Assembly: GCA_038078615.1 (NCBI GenBank)
Contig: JBBTWT010000019.1
Coordinates: 1 to 51,874 of the forward strand
Source: Patescibacteria group bacterium
GTDB taxonomy: Bacteria > Patescibacteriota > Minisyncoccia > Moranbacterales > UBA1568
Reading direction: 5' to 3'
DNA length: 51,874 nucleotides
Positions 3,700 to 39,646 of the stretch are shown piece by piece. The position numbers were made by a program, and so were the translations under genes. Under the pieces are notes generated by a model. That model saw only the letters and a program-made list of their open reading frames with translations. It ran no database searches and was not told the origin of the DNA. Position 1 is the first letter of the stretch. Every line of letters begins with the position of its first letter.

Positions 3700-4377
3700 T
3701 TACGCGTACGCTGGTGCTTCAGGGGCTGGATTTTTTTCAGCCTCTTCTTTCGCTTTCTTGTAAGCTCTTCTCGCCAAGAAGTATAGCACGATGACCATCG
3801 CCGTCATTATAGGTAGGAAATTCAGCCCGAAGCCGACCGCTTCGATGAGACCAAAGCCTATAATCACCAATCCGCGTACCAGAAACATATTCATCCTCGT
3901 GTGCTGCGAAGATCTGTCGAACATCGCGAGCAGGATCCAGATGAGAAAGGTAAAACAGATGGTCACAACGGTGCCGATGCCCGGCAGCGATCCGATGCCC
4001 GCAAAATCAAGCAAATCTTTGAGCAGGGCGATCATCGCAACCCCGAGATAGAGAAGCACGGACGGTTTTTCTCCGGTAAACTGAGCATTCGCGGCGGTTC
4101 TTCCTTGCTCGTCTTTTACTCTCCCGCTGCGGACATCCCGCCGCACCTGTCGCGCTCTTTGCAAAGCGCTCATTTTGCCAGTACTGCCATCAGAAGCAGT
4201 CCGTTGAGACGCCCCCGCGGTTGCTCCTCGGGACGCTCCGGCACGGCCGGTACTGCCGGTGGCAGCGGACCGAGCCGCCCCGGCTCCCGCACGGCTTCCG
4301 GCGGCGGCAGCTCGAGATGCGCCCGCGGCGGCGGTGACGGCTCCTCTGGCGGCAACGGCGATGATCGGCAGTACCAT
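3700..4377 (-). CDS. Hypothetical membrane protein with Ala/Gly-rich N-terminus
   Basis: 225-aa ORF with 3-4 C-terminal TM segments, co-oriented in the VirB4 cluster. Confidence 0.65.
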   Translation of the reverse strand: MVLPIIAVAARGAVTAAAGASRAAAAGSRAGAGAARSAATGSTGRAGASRGATAGASQRTASDGSTGKMSALQRARQVRRDVRSGRVKDEQGRTAANAQFTGEKPSVLLYLGVAMIALLKDLLDFAGIGSLPGIGTVVTICFTFLIWILLAMFDRSSQHTRMNMFLVRGLVIIGFGLIEAVGFGLNFLPIMTAMVIVLYFLARRAYKKAKEEAEKNPAPEAPAYA

Positions 4378-4438
4378 ACGGATGCGTATTAATCGTTTCT
4401 CTTATCCTCTCCCGCAATGCATGATCCCATTTTCTTCC

Positions 4439-6301
4439 TTATTGTCCGGCATCGAACTCTTGTTTCGCCTGTTCGATCTCGAGCAGCTGGCGCGGATCGG
4501 ACGTGATGATCTGATCTTCGCTGTAGGAAGCGACCACCTTGATGGCCGCGTGCTTGGATCCGGCGAAGAAGATGCCCTCGCCCACGTTGCTCTCGAGCAG
4601 GAGGAATTTCTCGTGATCCGTGAGATAGAACGTCTCCGCCACCAGATCGATCGAGGACGCGGACTGGCGGAGCAGAAGCTGCATCGAGGAGTTCGTGATG
4701 ATCGGTTTGCCGTAGCGCGAAGCGGCGAAATCTCCGATATCCTGCGTGATGGTCGTCAATCCCGTATAGTATTTGCGGCAGCGTTTGGCGATGCCGAAGA
4801 GAAACGACGCCGCATCCTCATTCTGCATCATCACCCAGGCCTCGTCCACCACGATGATGCGCTTCTTCATATGCGAACGGATTTCGTTCCAGATGAACTG
4901 GAGGATGATATACATAGCGATGGGACGGAGCTCTTCTTCCAGATCGCGGATATTGAACACGACGAGCTGATTCTGCATTTCCACATTGGTCTGCTTGTTG
5001 AGAAAACCGCCGAAAATCCCCTCCGTATAGCGCTCGAGGCGCGCCGCGAGCGACTCGGCACCCTCCATATTCTGCAGTACGGCATAGAGATCGGACATCG
5101 TCGGAAATGAAGACGCGGTAAAAACGGAAAAATCGCTTGTCTCCTGAATATCGCGGATAGCGTAGGATTCGCGGATAGCCCGCTCGAGAACCGCGTCTTC
5201 TTCCGGCGTGACGGAGCCGAGCATCAGGTGCAGAAGCCCGATCAGGTTCGCTACCGTATTGCGAAATACGCCGACACTATCCTCGTCGCTGACTTTTTTC
5301 GGCAGATCGAACGGATTGAGATGGACGTTGGAGTTGAGCGATACCTTGAGAAACGTCCCGCCGACGGCCTCGCACAGATGCTTGTATTCGTTTTCCGGAT
5401 CGATGATGATGACGCTCGCTCCGAACATCATCGAGCGGAGCACTTCGAGCTTCACCGTGTAGCTTTTGCCGGCGCCGGACTTGGCGAAGACGACCATATT
5501 GGCATTCTCCATCTTGAAACGGTCGAAAAGCACCAGACTGTTGTTGTGGCGGTTGATGCCGTAGAGGATGCCCTCATTCGAGGAAAGGTCCGAGGAAACG
5601 AAAGGAAATGTCGTCGAGAGCGGTTCCGTATTCAGGTTGTTCGCCACGTCCAAAGTATCGGTTCCGAGCGGGCGCGTCGACGCGAACCCCTGATCCATAC
5701 GCATCACCGACGGCTTGACATAGACGAGCTGGGCTTCGAGGGCTCCTTCCACCGCCTGACATTTCTGGCTCAAGTCTTTCTCGTTCTCCCCATAGAAGGT
5801 TATATACAGACCGAAGCGGAAAAATTTTTCCGTCCCCTGCTGCAGCTTGCTGCGCAAATTCTCGATGTCTTCGAGGGCGGTATCCAATACCGGATCTCTG
5901 ACCTGCCCGCCTTCCGCCTCGATATGGATCTGCGACTGCACCTGCGACGATGCCTTGCGCAGATTCTTCAGTATTTCCGCCGTCTCGATCGGATGTATGA
6001 ACAGAGCTATGTCCATCGAAAAATCGGTATTGATGATAGGCGAGAGCCAATTCGTAGAAAGGTAGCGCGGATAAGCGATGACGAAATACGTGCGCGTCAG
6101 CACCTCTCCGATCTGCATCGTGTTGGGACTGAGCTTGATCGCGGGCGGCGCGATGAGGTCGCGGATGGTCGCGATGCCCTTCTGATACAAGAGATCGCTC
6201 GCGCTCGGCTTGGCGCGGCCGAACACCGGCAAGAAGCTTTTCTTTTCCGTGGCAGCCGATTTTTTCGTGTTGGCGTCTTCGAAAATGATTCCTGGGAGCA
6301 T
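4439..6301 (-). CDS. virB4: VirB4-like type IV secretion ATPase
   Basis: Walker A AKSGAGKS, IIIDPENEY, Walker B IVVDEAW, RKYYTGLTTITQ; downstream of a PrgI gene. Confidence 0.88.
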   Translation of the reverse strand: MLPGIIFEDANTKKSAATEKKSFLPVFGRAKPSASDLLYQKGIATIRDLIAPPAIKLSPNTMQIGEVLTRTYFVIAYPRYLSTNWLSPIINTDFSMDIALFIHPIETAEILKNLRKASSQVQSQIHIEAEGGQVRDPVLDTALEDIENLRSKLQQGTEKFFRFGLYITFYGENEKDLSQKCQAVEGALEAQLVYVKPSVMRMDQGFASTRPLGTDTLDVANNLNTEPLSTTFPFVSSDLSSNEGILYGINRHNNSLVLFDRFKMENANMVVFAKSGAGKSYTVKLEVLRSMMFGASVIIIDPENEYKHLCEAVGGTFLKVSLNSNVHLNPFDLPKKVSDEDSVGVFRNTVANLIGLLHLMLGSVTPEEDAVLERAIRESYAIRDIQETSDFSVFTASSFPTMSDLYAVLQNMEGAESLAARLERYTEGIFGGFLNKQTNVEMQNQLVVFNIRDLEEELRPIAMYIILQFIWNEIRSHMKKRIIVVDEAWVMMQNEDAASFLFGIAKRCRKYYTGLTTITQDIGDFAASRYGKPIITNSSMQLLLRQSASSIDLVAETFYLTDHEKFLLLESNVGEGIFFAGSKHAAIKVVASYSEDQIITSDPRQLLEIEQAKQEFDAGQ

Positions 6302-23024: not shown

Positions 23025-24026
23025 ATGCTAACGCTACTTGAACTACGTAACCAGGCAGCACAATTGTTGCTTGAGGTGCAGAAACTACTCTCGATGAAAG
23101 TCAATGAGTTGGCAGCCCTGATTCCAAAACGAAAGCTGGAACGACAATACTTCGCGCCAATATACGCTAGTAACGTATGTGGCGCATCCTGCCCATACTG
23201 CGCCTTCCACAAGGGGAGTGGGGTGCGAAGAATAACTCTGACATTTGAACAGGCTCTGCAAGAAGCGCTCTTTCTGAAAGGAAAGGGGTGCGATTCAGCG
23301 TATTGCCTAACCGGAAGCTTCCCGGAAAAGGATATCGCCAAGGTCGGAAGCATGACCGAGGTAAATGCGCGCGTACTTCGAGCAATCCATCAAGTCGGAT
23401 TATTTCCGGTGCTTGAGTCGTCTCCCTTCTCAAGGGATAACCTCGCAGCACTTTTGGAGAGTGCTGGGGGTCGTGGTCGCTACGTGCTCTTCATGGAAGC
23501 CTACAATCAGGACGTCTATCGGGCGCTACACGACAACGATCCCTACAAAGGAAACCCGGAGAAGCGCCTCCAACAAGTCGAATTGGCCTTAGAGGCTGGC
23601 TGGCAGGAGGTGGGAATCGGCTTTCTTATTGGACTCAATCCGAACATCACGGAAGAGGTTACTAGTCTCGTTGCACACTATCGCTATCTGCGAGAAGAAC
23701 GCGGCGTACACACGGTGACCCTCTCCGTGCCGAGAGTGAATCCAGGCACTGGCGTCGAAGCCACACAGTGGACAATTCCGGATGAAATGTTTACCAAGGT
23801 CGTATTCGTGCTGCAGATCTTATGCCCGGATGCGTGGATCGTTCTCACTGGGAGAGAAAGCGCTGCGCTGCGAGACAGGCTCATTCCCCTCATCAACCAG
23901 TGCATCATCGGCGTGTGCGGGAGTACGGTGCCAGGCGGATATACGCTCGGCAATGACGCGCAAGATGGGCAATTTGCGCTCCTCGATAGACGCTCTATCA
24001 AGGAGCTTCGGTACAAATATAACTGA
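23025..24026 (+). CDS. ThiH/HydG-like radical SAM enzyme (BATS-domain subgroup)
   Basis: FAPIYASNVCGASCPYCAF, LTGRE...RD, GSTVPGGY, GQF..D.RS; AAGGAG RBS. Confidence 0.8.
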   Translation: MLTLLELRNQAAQLLLEVQKLLSMKVNELAALIPKRKLERQYFAPIYASNVCGASCPYCAFHKGSGVRRITLTFEQALQEALFLKGKGCDSAYCLTGSFPEKDIAKVGSMTEVNARVLRAIHQVGLFPVLESSPFSRDNLAALLESAGGRGRYVLFMEAYNQDVYRALHDNDPYKGNPEKRLQQVELALEAGWQEVGIGFLIGLNPNITEEVTSLVAHYRYLREERGVHTVTLSVPRVNPGTGVEATQWTIPDEMFTKVVFVLQILCPDAWIVLTGRESAALRDRLIPLINQCIIGVCGSTVPGGYTLGNDAQDGQFALLDRRSIKELRYKYN

Positions 24027-24039
24027 AAGGAGAACTGCC

Positions 24040-24924
24040 ATGAAGAATTTCACATTAGATCCAGGAAACGCGAATGTCGTATTCATCACGATCGATTCGT
24101 GCAGGTACGACACGGCGGAACAGGCGCACATACCATTTCTCGCGGGACTTGGAGGGCTGGCGTGTGCATATACGCCAGGCAACTACACTGTTCCCGCCCA
24201 CCACGCGTTTTTTGTCGGGCATCTTCCCACCGCTTTCACATCAGCACAACCGTATTACTCAGGTGCAAATGGGCAGCTGTGGCGAATCAAGACTGGAGCG
24301 GGAGAAGATTCCGGCGCATGGGTTACCTTGCAAGGGAAAAACATTCTCGAAGGATATCGAAACCTCGGTTTCTATGTCTTGGGTGTCGGGGGAGTGACCC
24401 AGTTCAACAAAGGCAGTCAATTACGGGAATATTTCGGGCAGGACTTCCTCTACTGGGGACCGAATCTCGATGAGGAGCCCTGTGCATCAAGACCTGAAGA
24501 GTGGTTCCCATTGCTGCATTGCGGGGAAATCGTTGACAAACTGCAACCTCACGAAAAGTGGTTCCTGTTTGTGAATTGTCCGGAAACACACTTCCCCTAC
24601 GATACGGGAGAGGGGCTGATGGAAGACAAGCTGGAAATCCTCAGGTTAATTCGGCCGCACTTCAATCTGCGAGAATCTGATGCACCTATAAACACCGCCG
24701 CGACTGGATTACTTCGCCGTATGCAGATCAAGGCGCTAGAGGCGGTGAATACAAGAATTGCCAACCTCTTCGCGGCGTTACCACGGGAACGGCCGATCCT
24801 GGTCGTTATTTGCGGAGATCACGGCGAGATGTTCGGGGAAGTGTTTGCAGGAAAGCCTCGCTTTGGACACATCATATCATCTCCGGAAGTCCTTAGGGTT
24901 CCTCTAATAATTGGGTGGCGTTAG
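24040..24924 (+). CDS. Alkaline phosphatase/sulfatase-superfamily hydrolase (STM4013-like)
   Basis: NVVFITIDSCRYD, PGNYTVPAHHAFFVGHLP, ETHFPY, GDHGE, VPLII; AAGGAG RBS. Confidence 0.8.
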   Translation: MKNFTLDPGNANVVFITIDSCRYDTAEQAHIPFLAGLGGLACAYTPGNYTVPAHHAFFVGHLPTAFTSAQPYYSGANGQLWRIKTGAGEDSGAWVTLQGKNILEGYRNLGFYVLGVGGVTQFNKGSQLREYFGQDFLYWGPNLDEEPCASRPEEWFPLLHCGEIVDKLQPHEKWFLFVNCPETHFPYDTGEGLMEDKLEILRLIRPHFNLRESDAPINTAATGLLRRMQIKALEAVNTRIANLFAALPRERPILVVICGDHGEMFGEVFAGKPRFGHIISSPEVLRVPLIIGWR

Positions 24925-34727: not shown

Positions 34728-35228
34728 CTAACCTATCAGGAATCGCTTCTTGTTGGCCGAGAGGTTGATGAAGTCGTCCGCGGCCTCGACGAGCTTCTGA
34801 CTCGCGGATTCCGCGAACGCGATCGCTTCGACACGGCAGCCGTAGGTGCTCTGTACGTATTCCACCAGCGACACGTAGTCCCCGTCGCCGGACACGATCA
34901 CGATCACGTCGAGTTTGGCAGCCATCTTGATCGCGTCGACGGCGATACCGACATCCCAGTCGCCTTTCTTGGAGCCGTCAGGGAAGATCTGCAGGTCTTT
35001 CGTCTTCACCTCGAACCCGCTTTTCTGTAGCGCCTCGAAGAACTTCTCTTCCGTCGCCTCCACCGTCTTGATGCCGTAGGCGATCGCGCGGATCAGCTTG
35101 CGCTCTTCCGTCGCCGCCATGAGCACGTTCTTGAAATTCACTTTCTTACCGTACAACATCCGTGCGCTGTAATACAGGTTCTGGATATCCACCAATACAC
35201 CGACTCTTTGTTCGCTAAATTTAGCCAT
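34728..35228 (-). CDS. NYN domain (LabA/DUF88) protein
   Basis: VDIQNLY, KGDWDVGIAVD, SGDGDY. Confidence 0.9.
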   Translation of the reverse strand: MAKFSEQRVGVLVDIQNLYYSARMLYGKKVNFKNVLMAATEERKLIRAIAYGIKTVEATEEKFFEALQKSGFEVKTKDLQIFPDGSKKGDWDVGIAVDAIKMAAKLDVIVIVSGDGDYVSLVEYVQSTYGCRVEAIAFAESASQKLVEAADDFINLSANKKRFLIG

Positions 35229-35315
35229 AATTAGTATCAATCACCAATCATCAAGTGCCAATCATCAAAAATTTGGAGATTGTTTCTTGGTTATTGGTTA
35301 TTTACATAAGGGGGC

Positions 35316-35582
35316 TTATGCAAGCCCCACAGTCTTCACTACCGCCTTGTATGCCTTCTCATCGGTCTTCTCAAGATAGTCCATCAGCTTCTTGCGTTTG
35401 GAGACCATCTTCAGCAATCCGCGGCGAGAATGGAAATCCTTCTTGTTCTTCTTCAGGTGCGCCGTCAGCTTCTTGATCTGCTCGGTAAAGAGCGCGATCT
35501 GATATTCCGGCGAGCCGCTGTCCTTCTCGTGACGCTTGACTCCTTTCGTCACCTTCTCCTTCTGCTTGTGCGTGAGTGCCAT
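35316..35582 (-). CDS. rpsO: 30S ribosomal protein S15
   Basis: DSGSPEYQIA, HLKKNKKDFHSRRGL. Confidence 0.97.
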   Translation of the reverse strand: MALTHKQKEKVTKGVKRHEKDSGSPEYQIALFTEQIKKLTAHLKKNKKDFHSRRGLLKMVSKRKKLMDYLEKTDEKAYKAVVKTVGLA

Positions 35583-35595
35583 AATTCGTTCGGCG

Positions 35596-35684
35596 ATACG
35601 CTCGTGCCGCCCTGGCGGGACCAGCGTATGCTACATAAAAAAATATTATAGACGAAAAGTAACACGGATATCCGATCCTGGCAA
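35596..35684 (-). promoter_or_regulatory. rpsO promoter and leader hairpin
   Basis: TTGCCA-17-TACTTT (35684-35656); ATACGCT/AGCGTAT stem at 35596-35629 (possible S15 autoregulatory leader). Confidence 0.45.
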
Positions 35685-35734
35685 GAGGTATTGAATTTTT
35701 GAACTCTCTACAGTCACTTTTCAATCTATTCTGC

Positions 35735-36802
35735 TTATCTATCTCTACCATCAGGGAGGTAGTTGGTTTCAATGTTCTTGCGCAATGTATAAGCATTGCC
35801 ATGCTTCATCAGGCCAAGATATGACCGCACGGTTTCCCGCTTGCCTTCCTTTTCGCGGATATTGCGGAAGGCTCTGTTTTTGGTAACGGTGCGTAGCACT
35901 CGATGGTCTGGGAAGTGCGTCCATCCAAGAAAGTCCACGCCGGAAGCCACTGTTTTGATGAACACCTTATCCGGATGAAGTTTGAGACCAAGACGAAACT
36001 CAAGAAAGGCGCTTATCTGTACAAGAATTGTTTTCAGTTGTTCCTTATTATCCGAAAAAATCACAAAATCATCAGCATAGCGGATATAGTATTTTGCCTT
36101 TGTCTGATGTTTCATAAACTGGTCGAACTCGTTCATATAGACGTTGACCAGAAGCTGACTTGTAAGGTTGCCAAGTGGCAAGCCTTTGCCTTTCTCTGTA
36201 TGAAAGCTCCCAATGATCTCTGAAAGAAGACCGAGAATATCCTGGTCAGAGATATGCTTTTCGAGAATCCTTAGCAGAATGTTCTGGTCGATAGAAGCAA
36301 AGAACTTCCTCACATCGCATTTGAGCGCCCACGCAGTCCTGGTGTGGTTATGGGAAGCCTTATGAGCAAAGCTGCGGAAGCGGTCGAGTGCCTTGTGGAC
36401 TCCTTTGTCATTGCGGCAGGAATAAGAGTCAGCAATAAACAATCGGTCAAAGAAAGGGTAGAGGACGCGGTAGATGGCTCGATGAACTACTCTGTCTCTT
36501 ACCCGTGCCTTATGGATATTCCTTGGCTTTGGGTCGGAGATATTGAAAGCCTCATAGTTAGAATGACGATAGGTTTTGAGAGTAAGTTCTCGATGGATCG
36601 CAAAAATGTTATCTGCGAGATGCAGTTCAAACTCTTCCACATCTTTACGCTTGCGCTTCCCTCGGATAAACTCTGTCCAGGCCTCAAGGAGATTTTCGAG
36701 AGAAATGATATGATGATAATTGTCCGATAATTTTACTTTTTCCTTATGCTTTCTTTTAACAGCCCCCCCCCCCGCAGTTCTCCCCTTGTTGCAAAGGCTC
36801 AA
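35735..36802 (-). CDS. DGR reverse transcriptase (start uncertain)
   Basis: PKPRNI, RDRVVH, KCDVRKFFASI, GLPLGNLTSQ (DGR-type SQ), RYADDF, GVDFLG. Confidence 0.95.
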   Translation of the reverse strand: MSLCNKGRTAGGGAVKRKHKEKVKLSDNYHHIISLENLLEAWTEFIRGKRKRKDVEEFELHLADNIFAIHRELTLKTYRHSNYEAFNISDPKPRNIHKARVRDRVVHRAIYRVLYPFFDRLFIADSYSCRNDKGVHKALDRFRSFAHKASHNHTRTAWALKCDVRKFFASIDQNILLRILEKHISDQDILGLLSEIIGSFHTEKGKGLPLGNLTSQLLVNVYMNEFDQFMKHQTKAKYYIRYADDFVIFSDNKEQLKTILVQISAFLEFRLGLKLHPDKVFIKTVASGVDFLGWTHFPDHRVLRTVTKNRAFRNIREKEGKRETVRSYLGLMKHGNAYTLRKNIETNYLPDGRDR

Positions 36803-37124
36803 GGCTGCCTATCAATTGTGGCACAGCGCGGTTGCACATATTCCAAAGCTTCATCGTTACACATTCGGAGGGAAGATAGATAAACTCTTTCTTGAGATAT
36901 TAGAAATCATTTTCCGGGCGCAATATGCCAAGCCGGAGCAGAAACTCCAATACCTCATTGCCGGGAGCGGCAAAATTGACCTTCTCAAATTCTTTCTGCA
37001 AATCGGCTGGGAAAGTAAGCTCGTAGATAACAAAAAATACCTCGCGCTTTCTACTGAACTTCAGGCAATTGGACGGATGCTTGGTGGGTGGAAAAAAGGT
37101 TTGGAAACAAAACTCTCGCCCTAA
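36720..37124 (+). CDS. avd: Avd-like four-helix-bundle accessory protein (start uncertain)
   Basis: PKLHRYTFGGKI...IDLLKFFLQI...IGRMLGGW; located between RT and TR. Confidence 0.85.
   Translation: MSDNFTFSLCFLLTAPPPAVLPLLQRLKAAYQLWHSAVAHIPKLHRYTFGGKIDKLFLEILEIIFRAQYAKPEQKLQYLIAGSGKIDLLKFFLQIGWESKLVDNKKYLALSTELQAIGRMLGGWKKGLETKLSP
36763..36773. repeat. C11/G11 homopolymer tract in the RT/avd overlap
   Basis: agCCCCCCCCCCCgc read directly. Confidence 0.9.
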
Positions 37125-37147
37125 AGACGAGAGAAACTTTACGCGTG

Positions 37148-37263
37148 GCCGGGGCAGAGAACCTGGTTGTCAGCATTCCAGTTGCCATTCTCGTCGAGCC
37201 TCCAGTCGTTGACGTTCCACTTGCGGTTGTCGGAGTTCCAGTTGACATTCACGGCGAAGACTT
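37148..37263 (-). repeat. DGR template repeat (TR)
   Basis: 116 bp; 10 AAY codons in the target frame; differs from the VR only at adenines. Confidence 0.96.
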
Positions 37264-37511
37264 TGTGCCTTGAACCATCCATTCCACCACCCTTTGAGTG
37301 GACTACTCACTCCTCTCAGGGTTGTATCGTATGCGGGACATAGAAGTCCACCAGTTCAAGACACCAACGCATTATATTTTTTTGAAAATAAAATGGCACT
37401 CTAGTTGAAGAAAGTTCCGCAACTACTCTGGCACATTTCATTTCCAGTATCCTGACCTTTCAGCCGTAGCCGAAAGAAATTTCCAACATACCTCTTTCAT
37501 TGTATCAAAAC

Positions 37512-37553
37512 AAAAAGACCCCGGGAAGCTGCGGATGCAGTTTCCAAGGGTCT
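37512..37553 (-). terminator. Hairpin plus T-run downstream of the DGR target gene
   Basis: GACCCTTGGAAACTGC-ATCC-GCAGCTTCCCGGGGTC-TTTTT. Confidence 0.7.
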
Positions 37554-37598
37554 AAGAGACTAAGTGTCCAAGGGTCTTTTGCCTAAGTGGCGAAAGGG

Positions 37599-38255
37599 TC
37601 AGAGTGCCGCGTTGCCGGGGCAGAGAACCTGGCAGTCAGCACCCCAGCAGCCACACTCGTCGAGCCTCCAGACGAAGACGAGCCACCAGCGGTTGCCGGA
37701 GTCCCAGAGGACACGCACGGCGAAGACTTCACCGCCCACACCTTCCAGGTAGAAGAGGTAGTAGCCTTCTTTGCCGTTCGGGTACATCTCGATCAGGCTG
37801 GCGATGTCTTCCCAGTTGCCGAGGTGGCGCTTAGGAAGGTCCGGACGAACTTCACGGTCGTAGGCGTTCTTCTTGAGACGTCCGATTCCGTAGGTCCGCC
37901 TGGGTGTGCTTGCCACCGGCTTGAGTACCGGCAGGATGCGCTCCCGGAAGGAACCATACAGGTATATGCCCGAACGGCTGAAGAATTCGTTCGGGTCGAT
38001 CGGTTTGTCCCGGGCCGGAAAGGTGATCGGGTCTTCCGGCTTCAGGATACTAGTTTCCCGGAGTATCTGAACACCTTGCACACTTTCAAATTTCAATCCC
38101 TTGATCATCCTTTCCAGATGCGGACGGCCCTTCGCCGTCGCGAGGACGTGAAATTCCTCCTCGCTCACGCCATGCGCGCGACGGATCTCGTCCATCGTAG
38201 CGCCGATCTGCATGGCGAAGCCAAACCCTGAAACCACCTGCGACTTCTTGCTCAT
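37599..38255 (-). CDS. DGR target (variable) protein, 218 aa
   Basis: GAGGAG RBS and ATG 38255; VR encodes the C-terminal ~38 codons. Confidence 0.9.
   Translation of the reverse strand: MSKKSQVVSGFGFAMQIGATMDEIRRAHGVSEEEFHVLATAKGRPHLERMIKGLKFESVQGVQILRETSILKPEDPITFPARDKPIDPNEFFSRSGIYLYGSFRERILPVLKPVASTPRRTYGIGRLKKNAYDREVRPDLPKRHLGNWEDIASLIEMYPNGKEGYYLFYLEGVGGEVFAVRVLWDSGNRWWLVFVWRLDECGCWGADCQVLCPGNAAL
37614..37729 (-). repeat. DGR variable repeat (VR)
   Basis: 95/116 identical to TR; all 21 mismatches fall at TR adenines. Confidence 0.96.
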
Positions 38256-38394
38256 TACTATTCTCCTCGATCCACTCCTCACGGCCCCACATATGCAGAG
38301 TCGCCCCAAATGGATCATCAAGGAACACACTCCCTTTTTCGCTCGGGAGCTTGGCGGTTTTTGCGTTTGCTGAAGCAGCATCGAAAAACATTGA

Positions 38395-38423
38395 AGTGTA
38401 GCATTTTTTGGCTTTTTTGTCCA
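38395..38423 (-). promoter_or_regulatory. Promoter candidate for the DGR target gene
   Basis: TGGACA-17-TACACT with extended TG. Confidence 0.5.
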
Positions 38424-38452
38424 GCCCGCTGAACTGGCTGGCACAGCGTGTC

Positions 38453-39646
38453 TCAAGCGCCATTTTCTCCCGGATCAATCCACTTGCCGTCTGACTTGAT
38501 CAGGGCGATGAGCTCCTCTACCGCTTCTTGTTCCGGCACCGCGCGCTTCACGAGTACCTTTTTCCGGTACAAACTGACTTGTCCGTGCGCTCCGCCGACA
38601 TACCCGTAGTCCGCGTCCGCCATCTCGCCAAGTCCGTTCACGATACAGCCCATGATCGCGATGTGCAGTCCTTTCAGATGACCCATGCGTTCCTTGATGG
38701 TGTTGGTCACCGGCTCGATATCGAACAGCGTCCGCCCGCACGACGGACAGGAAATGAATTCCGTCCGTGTGATACGCCGATGTGTTGCCTGCAGTATGCC
38801 ATAGCATGTCGGGATTTCCTTGGCGGGATCTTCCGTCAGTGAAACGCGAATGGTATCACCGATGCCCTCCAGAAGGAGCGTCCCGATACCGAGCGTTGAT
38901 TTCGCGCGACCCTCTTCGCCGTTGCCTGCCTCCGTCACGCCGAGATGGATCGGGTAGTCCATCCCCTCCTTGTCCATCGTCGCGATGAGCAGCCGGTTGG
39001 ATTCGATCATGACGAGGGGATTCGATGCCTTCAGAGCGACCACGATATCGTTGAACCCGTGTTTTCGAAAAATCCGCAGATACTCCATCGTCGACTCCAC
39101 CATCCCGAGCGGCGTATCGCCGAAACGTGACAGCACCCGGTCGGAGAGCGACCCGTGGTTACACCCGATACGGATGGCTTTTCCTGATTGTTTCAGGGCC
39201 TCTATGAACGGCAGGAGGCTTTCTTCTATCCGCTCTATCTCCTTGGCATAACTCGCGTCGTCGAATGCCAACGTACGAAATATCTTTCCATCGAGAAAAT
39301 TTCCTGGGTTGAGACGGATCTTGTCCGCCCATTTCAGCGCCTCGAACGCCGCGGCCGGCAGAAAATGGATATCGGCAATGAGGGGAATGTTGATACCAGA
39401 CTTGAGGAGCATTTCCCGAATCGGCCCAAGCGCCTGCGCGTGCCGCGGCGTCGGTGTCGTCAGACGAATCAGCTCCGTCCCGGCCTTCACGCAAGCCATA
39501 ATCTGCGCGACCGTCGCCTGCAGATCGAGCGTGTCGGTATTCGTCATTGTCTGTACACGAATCTGGTTGTCTCCACCGATCGGGACACCACCGACATTCA
39601 CGACGCGTGTTTTTCTGCGTGGCTTCAGTGCCGCAAAAGAATCCAT
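38453..39646 (-). CDS. ispG: 4-hydroxy-3-methylbut-2-en-1-yl diphosphate synthase
   Basis: PLIADIHF, RLNPGN, NHGSL, HLGVTEAG, GDTIRVSLT, CPSCGR, MGCIVNG. Confidence 0.95.
   Translation of the reverse strand: MDSFAALKPRRKTRVVNVGGVPIGGDNQIRVQTMTNTDTLDLQATVAQIMACVKAGTELIRLTTPTPRHAQALGPIREMLLKSGINIPLIADIHFLPAAAFEALKWADKIRLNPGNFLDGKIFRTLAFDDASYAKEIERIEESLLPFIEALKQSGKAIRIGCNHGSLSDRVLSRFGDTPLGMVESTMEYLRIFRKHGFNDIVVALKASNPLVMIESNRLLIATMDKEGMDYPIHLGVTEAGNGEEGRAKSTLGIGTLLLEGIGDTIRVSLTEDPAKEIPTCYGILQATHRRITRTEFISCPSCGRTLFDIEPVTNTIKERMGHLKGLHIAIMGCIVNGLGEMADADYGYVGGAHGQVSLYRKKVLVKRAVPEQEAVEELIALIKSDGKWIDPGENGA

Follow-up and report, generated by a model that had tools for sequence, protein, structure and literature searches.

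What is known of how diversity-generating retroelements (DGRs) work comes almost wholly from a single element, that of Bordetella phage BPP-1 (mtd-avd-TR-brt), which has its priming site in a long spacer 3' of the TR. According to Handa et al. 2018 (PMC6182149), this element requires about 140 nt of RNA from that spacer, and priming occurs from Sp 56. For CPR bacteria, the main text of Wu et al. 2018 (Nucleic Acids Res 46:11, PMC5758913) describes architecture B3, written TR-(avd)-RT with avd on the reverse strand, which is assigned there to "90% of the CPR set".

The DNA analyzed here (the window) is 51,874 nt long and corresponds to contig JBBTWT010000019.1 (assembly GCA_038078615.1) of a Patescibacteria group bacterium, in which the element occupies positions 35,735-38,255. 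We consider it very probable that this locus is a complete chromosomal DGR of the CPR/Patescibacteria type with architecture B3, including an RNA that would work as proposed below. The layout itself is of a known type; what seems to be undescribed is a conserved RNA scaffold together with a poly-G run. The preliminary description of this DNA had called a complete element, and the RT, the Avd, a target of 218 aa and the TR/VR pair were indeed all present. The order it gave also agreed with the ORFs and Pfam matches: on the minus strand, the target gene with the VR (37599-38255) is followed by the TR, avd (36786-37124, on the plus strand and antisense to TR and RT), and the RT ORF (35735-36802). 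The flanking genes are rpsO (35316-35582) and ispG (38453-39646). Among 12 further flanking ORFs between 23.8 and 48.2 kb, nine match Pfam families, each of an ordinary cellular kind (KsgA-like methylase, PNPase, GyrA, S1, TilS-like, FtsH, and others), three have no Pfam match, and no phage-like gene was detected, in agreement with the earlier remark that the element sits between rpsO and ispG without phage genes nearby.

The TR (37142-37263) and the VR (37608-37729), both read on the minus strand, carry a clear signature of adenine-specific mutagenesis. In a gapless alignment of 116 nt (TR 37148-37263 versus VR 37614-37729), 21 of the 31 TR adenines are substituted in the VR and no other base differs, so that 12 codons are recoded and 12 residues changed; this recount matches the figures first reported exactly. 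The alignment extends to 122 nt, and the additional stretch contains a single mismatch, a C in the TR versus an A in the VR, within the GC-rich 3' end, which has the form expected of a difference between IMH* (roughly 37142-37166) and IMH (roughly 37608-37632). Over the 122 nt, TR adenines account for 21 of 22 mismatches (9 to G, 9 to T, and 3 to C), with a binomial P of ~1e-11 for at least 21 of 22 mismatches on A given the TR adenine fraction of 32/122. The TR adenines are distributed over codon positions 1, 2, and 3 as 12:18:1, and the 21 changes fall on position 1 (10) and position 2 (11) and nowhere else. The 25 nt past the last changed adenine are identical except for the one C/A pair, after which TR and VR diverge. 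The VR occupies the 3' end of the target gene, where 7 nt separate it from the stop codon.

Comparison with other sequence data suggests that this signature is not merely old. In a close strain (genome G001), the RT is 99% identical and the TR differs by 1 nt, and 16 of the 17 sites at which the VR differs are TR-adenine sites. Moreover, in run X1, from the probable source sample, the VR appears as a two-allele bubble at 37604-37745, with one allele at depth 18 and 0 differences, the other at depth 21.6 and 16 differences (counted, not assigned to sites), and shared flanks at 2x depth. If the limits of the bubble are read on the assumption of 31-mer unitigs, subtraction of 30 nt places them at 37634 and 37715, both of which are TR-adenine sites; under the same assumption, 37715 is the outermost changed site on its side and 37634 adjoins the outermost one, 37633, on the other. 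Since VR alleles differ at adenine sites between close strains and two alleles are present in X1, the element is, as judged from these sequences, recently active. An exact-match search with the 27-nt VR 3' flank against the metagenome contigs yielded 0 matches. Contigs of run X3 left 37630-37742 uncovered and those of run X8 left 37517-37714 uncovered, gaps that carry no weight in either direction. A second target, a paralogue, was found on contig C22 of the same genome. Both VR polymorphism and remote VRs elsewhere in the genome had been raised at the outset as things to look for, and both were found. Within the MAG, the VR is identical in the two target paralogues (0/122 differences), so no independent diversification is visible there, and the RT has no start codon at the position used by its relatives. 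These two observations would suit a fossil cassette, in which the TR/VR divergence is old and the target is no longer diversified. However, because X1 contains two alleles with flanks at 2x depth, the identity in the MAG looks like an assembly collapse. The fossil explanation is also opposed by the concentration of VR differences on adenine sites between strains with nearly identical RTs and TRs, and by an intact RT ORF with its YADD motif, and we regard it as very improbable.

The RT ORF encodes 355 aa from TTG 36802 and matches RVT_1 with an E-value of 2.2e-27. Its translation contains the motifs LGNLTSQ and YADD, and [I/L]GxxxSQ is the mark of DGR RTs. The best relatives among solved structures are the reverse transcriptases of 8ub7-8ube (E 1.5e-45), whereas the top-scoring group II intron RT has an E-value of 8.9e-24; 8UBE represents the BPP-1 DGR according to a preprint. 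No DGR-RT-specific NCBIfam model was matched by the RT, for which the best NCBIfam model was a group II RT far below its cut-off, and PADLOC returned only generic RT models for the RT and no match for Avd or either target. TTG 36802 is the only canonical start codon of this ORF, and the ATG of its relatives aligns at about residues 16-20. A homopolymer of 11 G residues (G11, 36763-36773; C11 on the avd-sense strand) lies between the avd and RT starts. It falls within RT codons 10-14, and the avd TTG at 36786 is 13 nt downstream of it. The expression state of the RT is uncertain, because its sole start is a TTG upstream of G11 and none occurs at the position of its relatives. The avd ORF is open from 36720, with a likely start at TTG 36786 or 36789. 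Its product matches PF22296 (bAvd) with an E-value of 1.4e-13 and 51.7 bits (cut-off 40), reaches 63.2 bits against the NCBIfam model DivGenRetAVD, below the curated cut-off of 80, and has no match among PDB sequences at E <= 0.01. The HMM match starts at residue 21-24 of the long ORF.

With respect to BPP-1, the present element shares adenine-specific mutagenesis, the RT clade, an Avd partner, the IMH/IMH* logic, and a C-terminal VR. In BPP-1, by contrast, avd lies upstream of the TR in the same orientation (B1) and the element is phage-borne, whereas here avd is inverted between TR and RT and the element is chromosomal; the co-oriented upstream avd of the BPP-1-type B1 arrangement is absent from this locus, and of its long TR-RT spacer RNA no counterpart other than a conserved hairpin plus U-tract was found in the ~47 nt past the TR that were aligned. 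It was this inversion that led the preliminary description to regard the gene order as non-canonical and possibly novel, a view it would have given up if the arrangement proved routine in the clade. The order is unusual only when BPP-1 is the reference. Compared with the CPR B3 elements in the main text of Wu et al. 2018 (PMC5758913), the locus has the same components, order, orientation, chromosomal site, and CPR host, likewise a single adjacent target with the VR at its extreme 3' end, and no architectural difference at all. An inverted avd directly upstream of the RT was observed at 75 of 80 RT-related loci, the other five having no more than 101 nt of upstream DNA, and in all four cassettes of the element's own 0.76-Mb genome. 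Furthermore, every cassette with a detectable TR/VR pair (64/64) has the order VR..TR-(avd)-RT, and the closest relatives of both RT and target are labelled Candidatus Moraniibacteriota. The inverted order is thus routine in this clade, and the claim of novelty for it falls; as first noticed, the layout would make this simply one more CPR DGR. Nevertheless, four DGR cassettes in 0.76 Mb, one of them serving two paralogous targets, represent the outlay of a minimal genome on surface or ligand-binding variation.

The target protein has no match in the sequence families of Pfam or NCBIfam, and of 92 homologues none is named and none has a Pfam domain. In lacking a recognizable domain, it resembles most CPR targets as presented in the main text of Wu et al. 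2018 (PMC5758913). The columns that vary among targets coincide with Asn codons of the TR. An AF2 model (pLDDT 79.4) contains a confident C-terminal domain at about residues 65-215. A Foldseek search of the PDB with this model gave nothing at E <= 0.001, and the best Z in a wide VIA-align search was 4.8, below the noise level of the tool. C-type lectin-like domains, FGE-like enzymes, and TvpA make up most of the weak best matches for residues 60-218, with Z of 3.4-4.5, also below noise; that to Treponema denticola TvpA (PDB 2y3c) has a below-noise Z of 4.2 over 129 aligned residues with an rmsd of 4.0. If the model is correct, the VR would lie at the C-terminal end of a compact alpha/beta domain, as it does in DGR variable proteins of the C-type-lectin fold.

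The non-coding parts of the cassette contain the features that distinguish it most from the BPP-1 picture. Directly 5' of the TR, covariation detected by RNAalifold outlines a three-helix RNA domain on the minus strand (37265-37364), in which P1 pairs 37364-37353 with 37276-37265, P2 pairs 37349-37346 with 37339-37336, and P3 pairs 37322-37315 with 37296-37289. In an alignment of 61 sequences, 20 of its 22 pairs show compensatory changes, and 96.1% of cells can pair, versus 73.4% after shuffling (0/500 shuffles) and 34-53% when the structure is slid along the alignment. A covariance model of this domain (R1) matches the window locus and one other cassette of the same genome (C39), and gave no match at E <= 0.01 to the more distant cassettes C1 and C33 of that genome. 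When 151 genomes were sampled from the phylum, 25 had a match to R1. The six best outside the training set are all upstream of an inverted avd, with an RT next in five; the sixth locus (L092) ends before the expected RT position. An Rfam search of 35200-38700 at E <= 1 returned two chance-level matches elsewhere and none at 37103-37400. Folded as a single sequence, the predicted TR RNA is no more stable than its shuffles (z = +0.73), an uninformative result, and structure in the TR RNA is supported by covariation only. When the whole RNA was aligned, structure was predicted only in the 5' domain and in a 3' hairpin, none in the TR, and no long-range pairing was predicted between the 5' domain and the 3' region.

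This 3' hairpin with its U-rich tail (37103-37133, minus strand) begins 9 nt after the TR end. The 9-bp stem (37133-37113) and tail show an intrinsic-terminator pattern, i.e., a GC-containing hairpin plus U-tract; the feature spans the avd stop codon (37122-37124). A hairpin and T-run follow the TR in 59 of 64 cassettes, versus 271 of 3200 random windows (8.5%) and 9 of 64 positions after the VR; the counts come from our own pattern script, since the MAFFT alignment is poor in this region and RNAalifold recovers only 4-5 pairs there. The stems covary, and the base of the hairpin and a pyrimidine-rich motif preceding it are conserved in sequence and not just in pairing. We propose that the hairpin is either the predicted 3' end and terminator of the TR RNA or a hairpin recognized by RT/Avd. 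At the other end, a predicted sigma-70-like promoter (37371-37399, minus strand; GTGCCA, 17 nt, TATAAT; 10/12 matches) would place the 5' end of the TR RNA near 37364, where P1 begins. Alignment A3 shows a conserved -10-like box at this position, and promoter-like sites in VR-TR intervals occur in the sense direction in 30 of 64 cassettes versus 8 of 64 in antisense. Further upstream, a hairpin and U-tract follow the target gene (37505-37553, minus strand; hairpin 37553-37516) with a fold z of -3.08 and 0 of 200 shuffles as stable; it is likely a terminator that would part the target mRNA from the TR RNA.

From these sequence features we infer the existence, the start, and the end of a discrete TR RNA of ~260 nt. 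The promoter at 37399-37371, between target gene and TR, would drive this non-coding RNA, which would consist of the 5' three-helix domain (37364-37265), the 122-nt template (37263-37142), and the 3' hairpin and U-tract (37133-37103); its end would coincide with the stop codon of avd, which is read convergently. RT and Avd would be produced from a divergent gene pair whose starts flank the G11 run, would bind the RNA, and would copy the template into cDNA with misincorporation opposite adenines. This cDNA would then replace the VR, both in the 218-aa target (at its 3' end) and in the paralogue on C22, with the GC-rich IMH, one base different from IMH*, serving as the guide. RNA-protein recognition, the priming site, and any role of the G run are likewise inferred, whereas the sequences themselves show the parts and their order, the adenine-specific TR/VR differences, the VR alleles that differ at adenine sites between close strains, and the conservation and covariation of the RNA elements.

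A different account was given in the preliminary description, which took the layout as novel and placed a functional spacer antisense to the 3' end of avd, so that TR RNA and avd mRNA would converge and the RT would need a promoter inside avd. The avd stop codon is indeed only 17 nt from the TR end on the opposite strand, and in BPP-1, according to Handa et al. 2018 (PMC6182149), the spacer 3' of the TR contains the priming site Sp 56 and is needed as far as about Sp 140. Against this, the conserved, covarying structure sits 5' of the TR, the TR is followed by a conserved hairpin and U-tract, no conserved pairs were predicted beyond that hairpin in an alignment that reaches ~47 nt past the TR end, and the promoter scan gave no promoter-like site on the RT strand within avd. 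Neither the antisense spacer nor the internal RT promoter was therefore supported, and, with the layout published and typical of the clade, this account appears improbable. The discrete RNA proposed here differs from the BPP-1 arrangement in that a large conserved structure lies 5' of the TR and only a hairpin of ~30 nt plus U-tract lies 3', in place of a long 3' spacer, for which the inverted avd leaves no room. A compact RNA of ~260 nt would be a candidate for a second mode of template recognition and might provide a smaller programmable mutagenesis cassette.

Another alternative concerns the fate of transcription after the TR. The transcript from the TR promoter may continue through antisense avd and the G run into the RT, with the hairpin acting as an RT/Avd recognition or priming element; the RT would then be co-transcribed with its template, and avd expression would be opposed by antisense transcription. 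The start codons of avd and RT are ~30-45 nt apart in most cassettes, which leaves little room for two separate promoters, and the conservation of the hairpin base and pyrimidine-rich motif in sequence as well as pairing would also fit such read-through. In addition, TR and brt of BPP-1 are co-oriented (main text of Wu et al. 2018, PMC5758913). On the other hand, a U-tract directly after the stem in 59/64 cassettes is the classic signature of a terminator, and the combination of a TAnTAT box and an ATG located 13 nt past the G run, seen in 20 of 70 cassettes, is compatible with a local, near-leaderless RT promoter. Read-through is thus possible but, in our view, rather unlikely, and the discrete RNA remains the preferred reading.

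The poly-G run is not peculiar to this cassette. Of 79 cassettes, 70 have a G run of at least 7 nt where avd and RT meet, and 69 (about 87%) have one of 8-13 nt between the two genes; runs of at least 8 nt number 69 in the junction versus 2 elsewhere in 595,574 nt. Most cassettes have the run in the interval that separates the avd and RT start codons, outside the ORFs. Its length differs in 7 of 11 pairs whose 60-nt flanks are at least 90% identical, and assemblies break at it. Known contingency loci, such as those of Neisseria and of the Bordetella fimbrial genes, carry poly-G or poly-C tracts either in the promoter or in the 5' part of the coding region. The run described here resembles such phase-variable loci in being a G:C run of 8-13 nt at a gene start with a length that varies between near-identical relatives, and differs from them in lying mostly between start codons rather than inside an ORF. 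The literature on DGRs that was covered, which did not extend to Paul et al. 2017 (Nat Microbiol 2:17045) or to the supplements of Wu et al. 2018, contained no report of homopolymer, poly-G, or phase-variable tracts. The words 'promoter', 'G-rich', and 'stem-loop' are all absent from the main text of Wu et al. 2018 (PMC5758913), which therefore appears to contain no 5' RNA domain, TR-proximal hairpin, or poly-G run.

Taken further, these features would form an undescribed CPR RNA architecture, with a 5' three-helix scaffold for RT-Avd and a 3' terminator-like hairpin, serving a machine gated by a hypermutable poly-G run; we put this forward as a tentative reading that may well not hold in full. 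If it is true, the hypermutator would itself be phase-variable, by frame (in this cassette the run falls within the sole RT reading frame available) or by promoter/leader geometry, and if the G run switches RT or Avd, a targeted hypermutator would be under stochastic control. A role of the run as a substitute for a Shine-Dalgarno sequence was considered and rejected, as the run is separated from the ATG by a GAGG-like motif and the TAnTAT box. The run was also viewed as part of a spacer whose total length from a TGGCAA box to TAnTAT would be fixed; judged by eye, the distance on the left (4-11 nt) did not appear to offset differences in run length.

The DGR in the window is real and complete. 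Its template repeat (TR, 37142-37263, minus strand) and variable repeat (VR, 37608-37729, minus strand) form a gapless direct repeat of 122 nt with 22 mismatches, 21 of which are TR adenines replaced in the VR by G, T or C (9, 9 and 3, respectively); the remaining one is C in the TR versus A in the VR, within the GC-rich 3' end. Given an A fraction of 32/122, the binomial probability that at least 21 of 22 mismatches fall on A is ~1e-11. For the 116-nt pair of the preliminary description (37148-37263 and 37614-37729), our recount was identical, with 31 TR adenines, 21 substituted, no other changes and 12 codons altered. Substitutions are confined to codon positions 1 or 2, and just one of the 31 adenines lies at position 3. 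The three genes were also present as described, namely the RT ORF (35735-36802, minus strand; RVT_1, E = 2.2e-27), avd (36720/36786-37124, plus strand; PF22296 at 51.7 bits, above the cut-off, and NCBIfam DivGenRetAVD at 63.2 bits, below the cut-off of 80) and the target ORF (ending at 37599, minus strand; no family match). The best solved relative of the RT is the reverse transcriptase of 8ub7-8ube (E = 1.5e-45; best group II intron RT, 8.9e-24), and 8UBE is named as the BPP-1 DGR RT in a preprint. The element is flanked by housekeeping genes (PNPase, an NYN-domain protein, S15, IspG, GyrA and others), and no phage-like family was detected in 12 further ORFs scanned, three of which had no match at all, in agreement with the reported lack of phage genes nearby. 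The NYN-domain protein, a predicted RNase, is encoded at 34728-35240 (minus strand), between pnp and rpsO and just downstream of the DGR RT.

The order of the genes, with avd inverted, had been regarded as non-canonical. It corresponds to the layout TR-(avd)-RT, parentheses denoting the reverse strand, defined as architecture B3 by Wu et al. (2018, PMC5758913). From 545 tblastn-confirmed RT relatives in the genome collection, 80 were kept for a survey; their titles are almost all Patescibacteria/CPR, with Candidatus Moraniibacteriota the closest. Using an Avd HMM grown iteratively from the window's Avd, an opposite-strand avd was found immediately upstream of RT in 75 of the 80 loci, and the other five (L005, L048, L061, L068 and L070) have at most 101 nt of upstream DNA. 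A TR/VR pair, defined by at least 80% A-specific mismatches, was detected in 60 of the 80, and all 60 are ordered VR..TR-(avd)-RT. Among the 20 loci without such a pair, 17 have less than 1200 nt upstream, and three (L037, L066 and L084) yielded no pair under the filter although their avd is inverted and their 4-kb upstream flanks are complete; remote targets or overly diverged VRs may be the reason. The genome to which the window belongs (759 kb in 44 contigs, 87.7% complete) contains four cassettes of the same order, one in the window (contig C19) and three with RTs on C39 (~4115-5116, minus strand), C1 (~23141-24115, minus strand) and C33 (~4984-5997, plus strand), which are 56%, 49% and 41% identical to the window RT, respectively. 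The C33 cassette has two VRs, and a fifth avd-like ORF lies at the end of that contig (14201-14521). Since the layout is published and the inverted avd is common both in the survey and in this genome, the arrangement is routine in this clade; in CPR bacteria this gene order is what the literature reports as typical, and thus the claimed novelty falls. What makes follow-up worthwhile is a set of lineage-wide features extending beyond this window: a 5' RNA scaffold, a terminator-like hairpin and a poly-G run.

The preliminary description had placed the equivalent of the spacer antisense to avd. Our data point instead to a covarying domain 5' of the TR and a hairpin with a U-tract at the avd stop codon. 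The latter (37133-37103, minus strand) has a 9-bp stem, starts 9 nt past the TR end, spans the avd stop codon and ends in a U-rich tail. Using a pattern script, a hairpin plus T-run starting within ~25 nt of the TR end was detected in 59 of 64 cassettes with a detectable TR/VR pair, versus 271 among 3200 windows drawn at random from the same strand and 9 among the 64 that follow a VR, and the stems covary. In nearly all cassettes the 5' arm of this hairpin is pyrimidine-rich and the 3' arm purine-rich. The 5' domain (37265-37364, minus strand) comprises the 100 nt directly preceding the TR and forms three conserved, covarying helices, with the consensus fold placing helix P1 at 37364-37353 paired with 37276-37265 (minus strand). 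RNAalifold analysis of the window and 60 loci yielded 22 pairs, 20 of them with compensatory changes; 96.1% of cells were in standard pairs versus 73.4% in 500 shuffles (none reached the observed value), pairing dropped to 34-53% when partners were slid by 1-3 columns, and the covariation score was 0.79 versus 0.31. When the whole predicted RNA was aligned, the 5' domain and the 3' hairpin were the sole regions of conserved pairing, and the TR had none. No Rfam family matches these elements. A covariance model of the 5' domain (R1) matched the window and the C39 cassette, which was outside the training set, and had no match at E <= 0.01 at the C1 or C33 cassettes. Applied to an even sample of 151 genomes from the phylum, it gave 31 matches in 25 genomes; the six best non-training matches are all upstream of an inverted avd, with an RT following in five, while the sixth locus (L092) stops short of the expected RT position.

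Further examination of the region upstream of P1 revealed a promoter-like site (10/12 matches, minus strand) ending 7 nt before this helix, with a -10-like box conserved in the alignment. Promoter-like sites occur on the sense strand in the VR-TR intervals of 30 of 64 cassettes and on the antisense strand in those of 8. After the target gene, a hairpin with a U-tract (minus strand; stable fold, z = -3.08) is the predicted target terminator. Promoter, 5' scaffold, template and 3' hairpin would together constitute a self-contained RNA of ~260 nt, for which we infer the transcript ends, RNP formation and priming. It is also possible that a transcript reads through from TR into RT. In BPP-1, according to Handa et al. 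(2018, PMC6182149), cDNA synthesis starts at the 2'-OH of nucleotide 56 of a spacer lying 3' of the TR, and this spacer is required out to approximately nucleotide 140; in the RNA proposed for the window's lineage, in contrast, a terminator-like hairpin would take the place of the spacer, together with the 5' scaffold.

A run of 11 G residues (36763-36773, RT strand) lies between the avd and RT starts. Runs of at least 7 G were found at this junction in 70 of 79 cassettes (at least 8, i.e., G8-13, in 69), with lengths of 7 (1 cassette), 8 (7), 9 (13), 10 (30), 11 (15), 12 (2) and 13 (2), and G or C runs of at least 8 numbered 69 in the junction versus 2 in the remaining 595,574 nt of these loci. 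An RT-frame ATG is located 0-35 nt past the run in 50 of the 70 cassettes (exactly 13 nt in 20), and on the opposite strand 47 have an avd start 2-26 nt past it (43 of them TTG); thus, the run is intergenic in most cassettes. The window is one of 17 cassettes of the 70 without an RT-frame ATG after the run. The sole canonical start of its RT, TTG 36802, precedes the run, so that G11 would be translated as glycines and a one-base length change would shift the frame. Among closer relatives, L008, L009 and L010 carry G10 and, in their assemblies, lack an in-frame start. Run length was unequal in 7 of 11 locus pairs with at least 90% identical 60-nt flanks. Contigs of a relative's genome (G001) end on both sides of the run, and those of sequencing runs X3, X6 and X8 break at 36759-36772, which is not the case for X1, the probable source. 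Judging from these assemblies, the junction G run is widespread and length-variable across cassettes, which fits a hypermutable tract gating RT and/or Avd, a putative phase switch. Our literature search, within the texts it covered, found no paper linking DGRs to homopolymer, poly-G or phase-variable tracts.

Comparison with G001 showed that the window DGR is recently active. The RTs are 99% identical and the TRs differ by one base; the VRs differ at 17 positions, 16 of which are TR-adenine sites, and the whole 963-nt alignment has 32 mismatches, 15 of them outside the 122-nt VR. Thus, the element has diversified since these strains split.

When the genome was searched with the TR for remote VRs, as had been recommended, a second VR was found on contig C22, at the end of a 234-aa target paralogue (C22:6623-7445, i.e., L002 927-1749). 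Its N-terminal half differs from that of the window target; its final ~130 residues and the 120 nt of 3' flank match without exception. The two VRs show 0/122 differences and lie within ~500 nt of 100% identity (window 37481 to ~37990). In X1 contigs, the segments common to both targets (37487-37633 and 37716-37952) reach a depth of ~55, twice that of the unique flanks (~30), loose ends at 37487 and 38001 run into C22 flanks, and the VR forms a bubble (37604-37745) of two alleles, one with 0 differences (depth 18) and one with 16 differences by count (depth 21.6). Assuming 31-mer unitigs, the bubble limits minus 30 nt are 37634 and 37715, both TR-adenine sites; on one side 37715 is the outermost site with a change, and on the other 37634 adjoins the outermost, 37633. 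The doubled depth, two alleles and loose ends indicate that two target paralogues exist and probably bear different VRs, and the identical VRs in the MAG look like an assembly collapse of the two.

None of the 92 homologues of the 218-aa target is named or carries a Pfam domain, and wherever a source is named it is Moraniibacteriota or Moranbacteria. In the C-terminal 40 residues of the alignment, the variable columns fall on the TR Asn codons, between invariant hydrophobic and Trp positions. An AlphaFold model (44 sequences) had a pLDDT of 79.4, exceeding 90 over most of residues 70-200. A Foldseek comparison with the PDB gave nothing at E <= 0.001, and an exhaustive VIA-align search gave Z <= 4.8 throughout; rows spanning residues 60-218 were dominated by C-type lectin-like domains, FGE-like enzymes and Treponema TvpA (2y3c, Z = 4.2). 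The fold may plausibly be CLec-like. The central stretch of the target gene (37735-38090) has no DNA-level alignment to the G001 locus (L085), while both ends align (91-95%), and in an X6 contig 378 nt at the same place are replaced by 399 other letters; the sequences suggest that the central part of the target may undergo cassette-like exchange.
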